From: Saccostrea cucullata
Taxonomy: Eukaryota
Reading direction: 5' to 3'
Assembly: GCF_032062105.1 (NCBI RefSeq)
Contig: NW_026925603.1
Span: forward strand, 124,001 to 188,000
Length of the DNA: 64,000 nucleotides
Shown in pieces: positions 19,826 to 25,800 of the stretch; the stretch's first letter is position 1, and every line of letters begins with the position of its first letter. Under the pieces are notes generated by a model. That model did no database searches. It was given only the letters and a program-made list of their open reading frames with translations, and had not been told where the DNA came from. The position numbers and the translations under genes are program-made.

Positions 19826-22800
19826 TCAACACAGATGAACACCTGGTCCTTTTCCTTTAGCACCTGCAAATTCAATAAAAAAATACATTGGGCTATTGTA
19901 AATGTTTGTTACTTGTATCTATAATGTAACTGTACCCAACTGTGTATCACTCAATTTTACTTTTGATTTCATGTGAGTGGCTTTTGCATTGACTGCCCCC
20001 ACATTTATGTCTACCCAGCATGATGTGAGAAAGGAGGCATGTACGTGGCTGTTCCACTGACCCACCCCCTAACATTTTTACCTACCCAGCATGCTACTGA
20101 GGAAGGAGGTGTAAGTGGCTGCTCCAGTGACACACTCTCTACATTTTTACCATTCCAGCATGCTACTGAGGAAGGAGACACATAAGTGGCTGTACCACTG
20201 AGCCACTGACCCCCCATTTTTACTTACCCAGCATGCTACTGAGGAAGGAGGCGTAAGTGGCTGTTCCAGTGACTGCCCCCACTGCTGCGGGGTTACTCCG
20301 GACTGTCTTGACATTGAAACCATTAGGACCCCAGACCTCCACTTCTACAATGTGCCAGTCTGTTAACCTACATGTTTAAAATTAGTTTGGTTAGAATATT
20401 TAAATATATGCACATAAGCACTCCTTGTTAAATTCTAGATAAAATTACAAGTTGATTTTGATCATGAAATTGTAGAGGCTGTTACCACAAGACAGCTAGT
20501 GTAAGAACTTTTATGAGCTGAAGATCTCTGACAAGCTAAGAATGTTATCATACTTTGTGAATCTGATACATACATGTACATGTATGTGTTATTTAGCCTG
20601 TAGCTTGAGAATTAAGAATGATATGACATACTGAGGATCTGATACAATGGATCCCGTGACTTTGTCAAATCCCAGGTTGTGTGCTGCTATAGCTGCTGCT
20701 GCCATTGTGTTGACATTATTTGGAGCCAGGGGACACAACTCACGGACAGGTCCTGTATTGCATTTAAAAGGAAGGAGTTGTAGATGTCATCAGTATTATT
20801 TTTAAAAAAAAACAACTTTCTTAGTAGATATGAAATAAAAAATTTTATACCTGAAAAATTATATTAAGATGAAAAAAAAATATTTCCAGGAAATGTGAGT
20901 AATTGTGTTTTATGAAAAGACACTGCACCATTCAGTACCCCAAAACTGATGACAAACTAGTGATAGACAAACTGGTATGCTTTCTGTTGTGAGGAGGGTT
21001 TCAAAATATAAGTGACAAAATTTTACCATCATACAGCACTGCCTTCGTGTCCTTGACCTGCTCATTTCTGACCTTCAGGTCACCATCCAGTTTAAAGCTG
21101 CTGGGGTGTTTGGTCATTGTAACTTTTAAGTGCTGAAAAAGGCAATTCTTAACATGATTACATAACACAGTCTTTTTTTTTTAATTATTCCAGTAATTTG
21201 TTAAACAAATACAATACTGATACAGATATTTGCCCATGGTAAATCTGGGTAAATCCAAACATTTATTGTATTGATTCTATATTGGATACCGAATCAATAA
21301 CAATCACAGATTGTGAGGACTTCTTGTCATTTGAAGGCTCAGCTAAACAAGTCAAGGAACCACCATGTTCTCTTGTTAAACATACAGTTCAGGGGAAAAT
21401 TTATAATACAGAACTTACATGTAACATAGGAAGTCAGTATAATTTCATATAGGTGAGTATGTTATCAATATTGCATTTTAGTCTTGAACTCTACAACTAA
21501 TATTTTCCATCAGAATTTACACAAATTTTGCTGTAAGTCCACTAAGGTAACTCTTTCTTATCTTTATGATTTATGACTCTTACCTGTAACGTCCCTCTGT
21601 CGGCCATTTTTCTGATATCCTCTGCCCCCCAGAAGGCCCCACTTGGCACATAGAGGCCATGATTAATGGCCGCTCCCCGTAAACTGGTCTCCAGCTCCTG
21701 GGAACTCAGGGCTGTAGGGCTACCAATCTGTCAGGGCAAAATATCAGGTCAGATTTACATCAATATAAAAACAAATATATAATATTGATGTAAAAAGTGA
21801 AAGAAGCTCAAATATTTGGATATTTTTGTAACAATTTAAATCAGCATATCTCTACTGTTTCCATATGCTTTATTGAAAACTTTTTAATGCATGTGGGTTT
21901 TCTCACTTCTTCATTGAGAAAGAAGTTAAATTTAATATTTAATAGTCAGAAAACTGACAGAATTTTTTATGCTGAAACTGAAAAGACAACAAGTAATATC
22001 CAAGTTATTTGGTCATTATCTTAATAGTTGAGTAGAAACAGGTGAGAGACAGACCATGAAATCGGCCTCCTCCAGAAACCTTGGTCCCCACTCCTTAGTG
22101 ATGTCAGGGTGAGCTACCTCTACAATTAGGTCAGCATTCCTGGAAGAGATACATCAGTGTAATGTAAAATAGTCCTACATGGATGCAATATTGGGAGGTC
22201 TGCTATTCATTACACTGACAGATTTGGGAGTCACTACTTGTACCTTTTGCTGAAGTCCTTGAGTTCCTGTAGGAGGAGATCCTTACCTTTTGTTGAAGTC
22301 CTTGAGTTCCTGTAGGATTATATTCTTACCTTTTGTTGAAGTCCTTGAGTTCCTGTAGGATTATATTCTTACCTTTTGTTGAAGTCCTTGAGTTCCTGTA
22401 GGATTATATTCTTACCTTTTGCTGAAGTCCTTGAGTTCCTGTAGGATTATATTCTTACCTTTTTCTGAAGTCCTTGAGATCCTGTAAGATGAGATCTTTA
22501 CCTTTTGCTGAAGTCCTTGAGATCCTGTAGGAGGAGATCCTTACCTTTTGCTGAAGTCCTTGAGATCCTGTAGGAGGAGATCCTTACCTTTTGATGAAGT
22601 CCTTGGGATCCTGTAGGATGAGATCCTTACCTTTTGTTGAAGTCCTTGAGTTCCTGTAGGATTATATTCTTACCTTTTGCTGAAGTCCTTGAGTTCCTGT
22701 AGGATTATATTCTTACCTTTTGTTGAAGTCCTTGAGTTCCTGTAGGATTATATTCTTACCTTTTTCTGAAGTCCTTGAGATCCTGTAAGATGAGATCTTT

Positions 22801-25800
22801 ACCTTTTGCTGAAGTCCTTGAGATCCTGTAGGAAGAGATCCTTACCTTTTGTTGAAGTCCTTGTGATCCTGTAGGATGAGATCCTTACCTTTTGTTGAAG
22901 TCCTTGAGATCCTTACCTTTTGATGAAGTCTTTGAGATCCTTACCTTTTGTTGAAGTCCTTGAGGTCCTGTAGGAGGAGATCCTTATCTTTTGCTGAAGT
23001 CCTTGAGATCCTTACCTTTTGCTGAAGTCCTTGAAATCCTTACCTTTTGATGAAGTTCTTGAGATCTTTACCTTTTGCTGAAGTCCTTGAGATCCTGTGG
23101 GAGGAGATTCTTACCTTTTGTTGAAGTCCTTGAGATCCTTATCTTTTGTTGAAGTCTTTGAGGCCCTGTAGGAGGAGATCCTTACCTTTTGCTGAAGTCC
23201 TTGAGATCCTGTAGGAGGAGATCTTTACCTTTTGCTGAAGTCCTTGAGATCCTGTAGGAGGAGATCCTTACCTTTTGCTGAAGTCCTTGAGATCCTGTAG
23301 GATGAGATCCTGCTGAAATTCTTCCAGAGCCGCAGGGGATCTGTTCCACACAAAGGCAAGGTCAAGGTCAGGGTGTTCCTGAATCTTCTCCACAAGGTAT
23401 TTACCTGTAAACAGACAGGTAACAGATAAAATACCACTTGGACAGGTAACTTAACCACTAGCAAATGAACAGGCAACAACAAGAGGCCAATGGGCCACAT
23501 AGCTCAACTGTGTATCTTTGGCCATACTGTTCTTTACCAGATTTCCCCCCTTCACTGGCTTGTAATACCAATTGTGACCCCAGCCTACCCCCAGGGGTCA
23601 TGAATTTAATGATGCATTCACATAATTTTAGCTTGTCTGACTCAGTAGTTCTTGAGAAGAAGATTTTCAAAGATTTTCCCTATATTTTTCAATGTAAAAC
23701 ATGGATTCTTATTGTGGTCTCGCCCTACCCAGGGGGGTCATGATTTGAACAATTTAAACACTATACCCCAAGGATGCTTTCACATAAGTTTTAGCTTGTC
23801 AGACCCAGTGGTTCTTGAGTAGAAGATTTTAAAAGATTTTCCCTATATTTTTCAATGTAAAACTTGGATACCCGGGGGTCTTGATTTTAACAATTTAGAA
23901 TATACACTAACTCCTGGATTCTTCATCTAAAGTTTTAGCTCTTCTGGTCCTGTGGTTCTTGTCTAAGAAGAAGATTTTCAAAGATTTCCTGATAAATGTA
24001 AACCTTGGCCCCGCCCTACCCCTGGGAATCATGATTTTAACCATTTAGAATTTTCCTTACCCAAGGATGCTTCCACATGAGTTTCAGCTTTTCTGGTCCA
24101 ATGGTTCTTGAGAAGATTTTTTAACGACCCCACCCTACATTTTTTTTTTTACTTTTCTTAATTATCTCCCCTTGCAAAGGGACTTGGCATTTCATTTTAA
24201 CAATTCTAACTCCCCTTCACACAAGGATGCTTTGTAGCAAGTTTGGTAAAATTGGCCCAGTGGTTCTTGAGACAGAAGTTGAAAATGCGAATAGTTTACA
24301 GCAGGCTTGGGGCGAATTACATTGAAAGTAATGCATTACCATTACCATTACTTCAACAATTTGGGCATTAAATTACCATTACCATTACTCTATTTTCTTA
24401 AAGTAATGCATTACATTACCATTACTTAAGTAAAGTAATGCATTACCATTACCATTACTTTTGGAGGTTTTTAAAAATAGATTTTTTTTACAAAACTTTG
24501 CGATGTGTTTTTCAAATGCATGTATCCACCCCTTTCAAAACTAAACATGACAATTCAAATTTGATTTCAAGTTTTTGTATATATTACAATGTCATTAACT
24601 TACAATCAAAGAAAGTTCAAAGTTCTGAATTGTCAGTTTTGTGAAACATGTACAATATCCACTTTTTATGTAACTACTGAAGTCATGAAGTAATTGAACT
24701 TTTGGGGCACTTTAACCCCTGCCTAAAATATCTAATAATAAAGCATATAGGCTTTTTTGATTAGTACCATATGAAAAAAATAAATGCATGGACAAACTTT
24801 TTGAAAAAGTAGACAGAGTGTACATTTTGATCTGCTAAGCACAGTAAGGCATAGAATGCCTGCATGGCTTCTATTTTCTTTGGTACAGTTTAATTTTTCA
24901 TGGTCAGTACAAGGTAAATCAGCTCAATTTATGTTTTATAAACACAGTCAGGAGAAAAGGACTGGTAATTTGGAGCACTTCTCCAAACATTACATTGGTT
25001 TAATTGTTACATAACCCAGAGGCCTAGTGTGTTTTGGTGACACTCTAGCTATTCAAAAGGTAGCAATTATCAGTTTACAGTGTACATTAATTAGTGTATC
25101 TCATATGCGATTTAAAAAAAATCATTTAAAACTATTTTATATAATTCTTTGAAATCAATTGTTATCTGAAATAAGTTTGTAAACTTAAATGTAAGGTAGG
25201 TGTACTTTCAACAGCTAGAATAAAAAGTGTATTTACATGTAAATAGATACATAAATGTTATCTAAATAGGTTAACATTTTTATTCAATAGTATCATTTGC
25301 AAAAAAAAAAAAAAAAAAAAATAGAAATAAATAAATAAATAAAATAAATAACCTGAACAACAATTTCCATCATCCATGTCCATTTAAATTTCTTAAAATA
25401 GGTACTTATCGTACTGACCGTAAATACATCAAAAACAAAGATAATGGTATTTCGAAACAGTGGAACAGTAAATTCGTCGTGGACTTACAATGGTGAAATC
25501 CTCGAGTGCGTTGATTCTTTCAATTATCTAGGCCTTACATTGTTTTATAATGGTAAATTTACTTTCACCCAGAAAAAGCTGGCAGACCAGGGACGAAAGG
25601 CACTTTTTGGACTAAATCGAAATATTCAAATGTTTGAATTTAATGCAGAAACTCATTGTCAATTGTTTGATACATATATATTAAGTGTTTTGAATTATGG
25701 TTGCGAAATTTGGGGTTTCCACAAATCACCTGAAATAGAGCACATACATCTTATGTTCTGTAAAAATTTGCTAGGAGTTAAAAGATCTACATGTAGTTAC

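Follow-up and report, generated by a model that had tools for sequence, protein, structure and literature searches.

We analyzed a 64,000-nucleotide stretch of the Saccostrea cucullata genome (NCBI RefSeq assembly GCF_032062105.1, contig NW_026925603.1, positions 124,001 to 188,000), referred to here as the window, in which intron 2 of the gene ASPDH (aspartate dehydrogenase domain-containing) contains a long tandem array derived from the end of the preceding exon. The exons, on the minus strand, match ASPDH proteins by homology (tblastn with P0003 across residues 1-279), the closest named proteins being those of Saccostrea, followed by Ostrea edulis and Magallana gigas. Two Pfam domains, PF03447 (NAD_binding_3) and PF01958 (Asp_DH_C), score above cut-off on the full-length protein P0088; the single exons P0001 and P0002 gave no Pfam hit, so the identity of the gene is taken from its homologues. 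Exon 2 terminates in ...KDFSK-R, in phase 2, and is followed by an intron of 1132 nt whose unique remainder is single-copy in a search of the same assembly, except for a match on a second contig described below. (At window 23272-23280, the exon end reads KDFSK-R in Saccostrea-type proteins and KDFKE-R in Ostrea and Magallana.) Coordinates of all features are collected in Table 1.

The array is an intronic minisatellite whose unit joins the final 40 bases of ASPDH exon 2 to GTA, the composition that an earlier note on this DNA had proposed. The first repeat unit crosses the exon-intron boundary (40 exon bases and GTA), a boundary that is seen in RNA, and 26 intronic copies follow. Unit ends are sharp, as the flanking bases differ on both sides (C versus A before the unit, and C versus A after GTA). 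Seven of the units are 28 nt long, with 15 nt missing between two internal AGGATCTC-like repeats. At the far end the last copy passes into the unique intron as AAG/GTACAA (22243-22140; the slash marks the boundary), again as that note had read it. Differences among the units comprise 12 non-synonymous and 3 synonymous changes, which indicates that the units are under no coding constraint.

The exon 2 donor is thus present at 27 positions, with GTAAGG at 12, GTAAGA at 8, GTAAAG at 4, ATAAGG at 2 and GTACAA at 1. GT is retained at 25 of the 27, and inside the array lie 23 further GT donors along with the two AT variants. Bases +4 onward of the first donor, AAG/GTAAGG, are the start of unit 1 and hence a copy of exon bases -40 onward. 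Scored against what we take to be the U1 motif, the first donor matches at 7 of 9 positions (-10.0 kcal/mol) and the distal donor at 5 of 9 (-5.6 kcal/mol), in agreement with the earlier description of the first donor as the better one. Two other ASPDH donors, in a scan that covered all but the exon 6 donor, likewise match at 5 of 9 positions, and one of them is supported by RNA, so GTACAA should be workable as a donor. All 26 later donors bring a TAA into frame, with a stop at codon 44 of exon 2; the codon is the same for each because the TAA lies in frame just after the first donor.

The assembly has one other copy of the locus, on contig G000:C8829 (hereafter C8829), giving two matches overall. 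C8829 is collinear with the window across about 20 kb at roughly 76-94% identity, and this collinearity, together with the two assembly hits, suggests that it is an uncollapsed haplotype of the same locus. Its array measures 939 nt, compared to 1028 nt in the window, and comprises 26 units by our count, with eleven 28-mers first, in triplets, followed by two copies of a 209-nt block that contains 40-nt units. The first donor is AAG/GTAAGG, as in the window, while the distal one reads AAG/ATACAA and is therefore unable to serve as a GT donor. Both arrays end in TACAAGTAGT, and the start of the unique intron is common to the two copies (TACAAGTAGTGAC in each), which implies that the array and the distal sequence are older than the split between the copies. 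Searches of the same genome found no third, array-free copy. Near the distal end of the C8829 array (C8829:7481-7524, L002), one 44-nt unit reads GTAAAGGATC; this could be what remains of a 44-nt duplication that first arose through CA microhomology, or a mere slip in the A-run.

To determine which donor is used, we examined RNA from close relatives that carry one organism label and are not the sequenced animal, comprising three raw oligo-dT runs (X21-X23, from one study, about 45% of each run) and two contig sets (X1 and X7). Reads were placed on two stretches at the ends of the array, the first consisting of exon 2 and unit 1 and the second of the last unit and exons 3-4. The first stretch received 118 reads from the three runs and one contig, with a depth of 0 over 23229-23268 in unit 1. 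Among the loose ends listed, 48 reads (18, 14 and 16 per run) and one contig pass from 23271 into exon 3, and all 48 of 48 junction-side loose ends join exon 3. On the second stretch, reads over the 40-nt copy show exon-type letters (64/64 at 22264 and 61/61 at 22275), 51 reads link this single copy to unique exon 2, and none enters the preceding unit (depth 0 at 22285-22290). These letters and linking reads indicate that mature RNA holds a single copy and that splicing from it uses the first donor. In the RNA examined, as read at its two ends, the array is spliced out whole from the first donor, the donor that the earlier note had expected transcripts to use. Use of the distal donor, which the same note had named as contrary evidence, appeared in 0 reads. 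Separately, a small number of reads continue into intron 3 of ASPDH (22010-22055 and 21735-21784), where two in X21 join approximately 22027 to 21727 and one comes from X23; these perhaps reflect a minor alternative donor.

Block amplification of seven units, or 301 bp, had also been proposed for the array, and the unit sequences bear this out. The CCTGTAAGAT variant is found at 22481 and 22782 and nowhere else, and the longest exact match within the array occurs at lag 301 (110 nt). Across units 12-26, units seven apart differ by a mean of 1.6 mismatches, compared to 2.7-6.0 at lags 1-6 and 8, and only 0.6% of 20,000 shuffles of these 15 units equal the lag-7 value at any lag from 2 to 8 (p=0.006). 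Pairwise mismatches between blocks A and B are 1, 0, 1, 1, 0, 6 and 1, with units 18 and 25 (6 mismatches) as the sole break. The 301-nt block repeat is ordinary minisatellite turnover.

How the working donor originated is a matter of reasoning, and we consider it probable that this donor was built at the duplication junction from an ancestral GTACAA. Tandem duplication of 43 nt spanning the end of the exon would have joined GTA to AGGATC and so produced AAG/GTAAGG, the sequence found at the first donor of both copies and the outcome of head-to-tail joining that the earlier note had described. Such a duplication would have survived since the new first donor works, any later donor truncating the protein at residue 69. 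Slippage and unequal exchange would then have amplified the array differently in the two copies, and the old distal donor, released from use, would have been free to decay. Upstream-first selection (as tested for human F7), together with nonsense-mediated decay, would exclude the other donors and the 23-nt pseudo-exons from mature mRNA, the net effect being a longer intron, a swapped donor and an unchanged protein. We find this whole explanation, in which a silent minisatellite is removed via a junction-built first donor and a weaker GTACAA is left unused distally, a likely one. Even were it true, the survival of such a duplication requires a working first donor, and so the "better donor" needs no adaptive story. 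Protein searches returned only three genomic open reading frames (ORFs) that cover exon 2 (P0082, P0083 and P0084), none of them Saccostrea-like. Two of these translated ORFs, from oyster-like relatives, bear on the ancestral donor: the tail of P0084 (..KE-K-YR) implies a GTAY donor, and that of P0083 (..KE-R-FK) implies GTTYAAR, one change from GTACAAG.

Several observations weigh against this explanation. On the RNA side, at 10 fixed differences between the copies the reads agree with C8829 at 8 and with neither copy at 2, and the presence of the array in the RNA-source animals is an assumption. Oligo-dT RNA is blind to products already lost by decay, and the reads cover only the two ends of the array, such that internal-donor use is excluded from those ends only. 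On the side of ancestry, the ORF that most resembles Ostrea edulis, and for that reason is probably the closest outgroup, is P0082; it terminates immediately after ..KER, and the donor implied is GTAA, GTAG or GTGA, unless the ORF is cut short. A reading of the unit as 38 exon bases plus GTAAG, with 2-nt AG microhomology, fits equally well, and GTACAAGT is the consensus GTAAGT plus 2 nt. Array-free orthologue DNA from an oyster was not found in searches of the same assembly, proteins and metagenomes, and a search of sequencing runs returned no run with half the query words and no clear genomic DNA run (20 small-share rows). The ancestral donor might already have been GTAAG(T), copied intact via the AG microhomology (exon -40/intron +4), with the distal GTACAA as a later change or deletion scar. 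A 2-nt insertion does turn GTAAGT into GTACAAGT, removal of 2 nt from which restores the exact consensus; the microhomology accounts for a perfect donor without luck; the P0082 tail (..KER*) is compatible with GTAA; and array ends have diverged in other arrays of this region. However, turning GTAAG into GTACA would take an indel or two substitutions, and intact copying requires that specific change at +4/+5 before the copies split, as both have TACAAGTAGTGAC. In addition, P0083 and P0084 imply donors other than GTAAG, and GTAAG occurs in 0 of the 7 distant loci described below. A rough, reasoned likelihood favors the GTACAA-first order approximately 2 to 4 fold. We regard intact copying as unlikely, though it carries real weight; were it true, this would be a plain F7- or mirage-type array with nothing built.

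A different origin, intron gain by tandem duplication, was suggested by the likeness drawn in the earlier note. In the available portion of PMC3443670, this model has a new intron that takes both of its splice sites from the duplicated piece, at an AG/GT proto-splice motif, and the ASPDH unit also ends in AG/GT. A metagenome scan yielded 24 homologous loci at 36-69% identity, none at oyster level; L020 and L021 could not be projected, and no row resulted for L030, L031 and L034. AG/GT follows the same codon in 7 of the 24 (L011, L012, L013, L018, L022, L029 and L033), and the next exon was found downstream in four of those seven. Their donors are GTTAGT (two loci), GTAGCA (two), GTACAC, GTGAGC and GTGAGA. 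L016, L023 and L025-L027 read through the intron position, and several loci are intronless or transcript-like. Genomic ORFs of oyster-like relatives depart from the coding sequence at the same place as ASPDH exon 2. An intron position common to seven distant loci refutes the gain model unless there were seven independent gains at one position, and the acceptor in use (22140) lies in unique sequence, outside the duplicated segment. The likeness therefore did not hold, and we give the gain model almost no credence: intron 2 is old, and the array is not an intron gain. The two processes are alike in that tandem duplication supplies a donor and leaves the protein unchanged; they differ in that the ASPDH intron is an old one that was lengthened, its donor probably replaced and its old acceptor kept.

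The pseudo-microexons that the earlier note had pointed to are present in the sequence and show no sign of use. The strict motif, CCTACAG/23 nt/GTAAG, occurs in 12 of the 26 units of the intron and likewise within real exon 2, where it encodes I-L-Q-D, indicating that it is inherited from the exon's own codons. None of the 118 reads enters unit 1 or includes its 23-nt piece, although decay might hide rare products. These pieces look like silent by-products. Alternatively, the array might act as a regulatory device, in which decoy donors and 23-nt pseudo-microexons yield stop-carrying transcripts that tune ASPDH via decay, with array length setting the leak. Consistent with such a role, the internal acceptor has 9 of 13 pyrimidines, equal to four real ASPDH acceptors, and the part of PMC1557585 available reports that in two human genes (6-16 and CBS) the next one or two donors are used too. 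Against it, the empty unit 1 is matched by an absence of extra letters in the 48 junction reads (0/48, among the loose ends listed), which limits use to less than about 6% at 95% (rule of three, before decay). Each internal AG follows a donor by only 20 nt, and a 23-nt insertion breaks the frame. Furthermore, C8829 puts acceptor-less 28-mers in place of the first eleven units, so the layout is not conserved. A regulatory role is accordingly improbable.

We also surveyed 472 kb of the assembly with Tandem Repeats Finder for arrays with a period of 20-100 and no fewer than 2.5 copies. This identified 34 arrays, of which 18 lie on this contig (258 kb surveyed), 3 on C8829 and 13 across 185 kb in 19 other stretches. 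On this contig, by eye, 9 of the 18 (2 of the 18 classed from their summary row only) begin within a likely exon and extend across its donor, two of these being paralogous copies of each other, and 2 of the 18 span acceptors. In the other stretches, 1 of 13 is donor-spanning (7 inspected by eye, the other 6 classed from their summary rows alone). Only the two ASPDH arrays have firm exon status; the seven other candidate exons gave three weak but sensible Pfam hits below cut-off (TPR, RWD and fibrinogen), one doubtful hit and three without any. A count of 9 in 18 gives p=6e-8 at 5% per array, a rate that is assumed, on a contig chosen through the ASPDH finding. Across the 10 donor-spanning arrays, the number of intron bases per unit falls below 6 only in that of ASPDH exon 2 and is approximately 12-29 in the others.

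The second ASPDH array has about 2.5 copies in C8829, and its first donor is GTAAGT in the window and GTAGGT in C8829. The 35-nt array, in a gene that is presumably trichoplein-like (TCHP-like), has only about 4 copies in C8829, a length difference of 1.1 kb, and the 55-nt array fills nearly all of a 2.7-kb intron, with a shorter version in G000:C18937. The gene that carries the 76-nt array we take to be ANAPC7-like. The first donor of the 47-nt array is CAG/GTACAA, an intron start identical to that at the distal donor of ASPDH. Two of the three 26-nt arrays immediately follow paralogous exons that have a weak RWD-domain hit, and they span CAT/GTAAG, and the 67-nt array is the only clear donor-spanning case outside this contig. 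Elsewhere in the gene, ASPDH intron 1 contains a 370-aa open frame (window 25402-26514, plus strand), which presumably resembles the C-terminal part of a LINE-type element.

Table 1. Positions of the ASPDH exons, the exon 2 array and its parts, and other arrays (window coordinates unless a contig or stretch is named)
Feature	Position	Strand	Evidence
ASPDH coding exon 2, 133 nt	23404-23272	-	tblastn with P0003; RNA depth and loose ends at both edges
Exonic founder copy, last 40 nt of exon 2	23311-23272	-	sequence
Working donor AAG/GTAAGG	23266..23274	-	spliced RNA to exon 3; U1 match
26 intronic repeat units (19 x 43 nt, 7 x 28 nt)	22244..23271	-	sequence
Zone with all seven 28-nt deletion units	22889..23142	-	sequence
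Block A, units 13-19, 301 nt	22545..22845	-	sequence, permutation
Block B, units 20-26, 301 nt, near-copy of block A	22244..22544	-	sequence, permutation
Distal donor AAG/GTACAA	22238..22246	-	sequence; no use in RNA examined
Unique intron remainder, 104 nt, acceptor CTTCCAG at end	22140..22243	-	sequence and RNA
ASPDH coding exon 3	22055..22139	-	tblastn with P0003; RNA
Second donor-spanning ASPDH array, 71-nt unit, ~4 copies, end of penultimate coding exon	19996..20273	-	by eye
38-nt unit x3, appears acceptor-spanning	129-241	+	sequence
55-nt array (33 exon + 22 intron bases, CTG/GTGAGT)	5122-7862	+	by eye
35-nt unit x37 spanning donor GGG/GTAAGG	13769-15063	+	by eye
One likely exon between acceptor-spanning 36-nt array and donor-spanning 30-nt array	56161-56816	-	by eye
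76-nt unit x3 spanning donor of TPR exon	58602-58810	-	by eye
Three related 26-nt arrays	G000:C7740:81494-82306, 91764-92666, 103668-104696		
47-nt unit x77 after likely exon	G000:C7740:109234-112860 (L045-L046)		
67-nt donor-spanning array behind fibrinogen-domain exon	L065:4509-5917		

The ASPDH array belongs to the donor-spanning minisatellites of the human F7/CBS and amphioxus "mirage" kind: its first unit spans the boundary, copies of the donor recur within the intron, and mRNA, here that of relatives, shows use of the most upstream one. In the part of PMC1557585 available, F7 and four other human genes have minisatellites whose first unit spans the donor (the 37-bp variable number tandem repeat in F7 intron 7, CBS intron 13, 6-16, lamin B2 and PDGF); as in ASPDH, the donor is reiterated and the most upstream one is used, with upstream-first choice shown for F7. 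According to the same portion, the F7 unit has 4 exon and 33 intron bases and thus copies the donor whole, as does the CBS unit, with 24 exon and 7 intron bases (c.1444_1467+7, in the available part of PMC2630376). The ASPDH unit, in contrast, holds 3 intron bases and receives +4 to +6 from the next unit, and there are 26 extra copies, compared to 4-8 in F7. The amphioxus mirages (Adh3 and the globins BflGb6 and BflGb9), as described in the available part of PMC3087553, are duplicated exon-intron boundaries at either end of an intron, with units of 10-160 bp. They share with the ASPDH array undisturbed normal splicing and an occurrence of several per genome, and their haplotypes differ in copy number; C8829, if it is a haplotype, would likewise show variation in array length at ASPDH. 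They differ in being from a cephalochordate rather than a mollusc, and a junction-formed donor is not described in that part of the paper. No literature report of such arrays in oysters or bivalves was found, in a search that most subscription papers lay outside. The unusual feature of the ASPDH array is that each unit has only 3 intron bases, and for this reason its working donor may have been junction-built.

On present evidence, the array adds another silent member to the donor-spanning minisatellites and leaves the protein unaffected. If GTACAA was the ancestral donor, the donor at a fixed exon boundary was replaced in one step and not by point mutation, and the old donor has been caught decaying in the second copy. 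The array density on the contig is the more testable lead: do oyster exon ends seed repeats, and do 25 competing donors cost mRNA? More tentatively, and at slightly less than an even chance, the locus may record a splice-donor hand-over, in which a repeat with 3 intron bases built a stronger donor from exon sequence and irreversibly retired the old one, whose GT was lost in the other copy, all within a region of recurrent exon-end minisatellites. If a hand-over of this kind did occur, such arrays would be a routine means by which oyster introns lengthen and splice sites turn over, and their natural alleles would form a series for testing upstream-first donor choice outside mammals.

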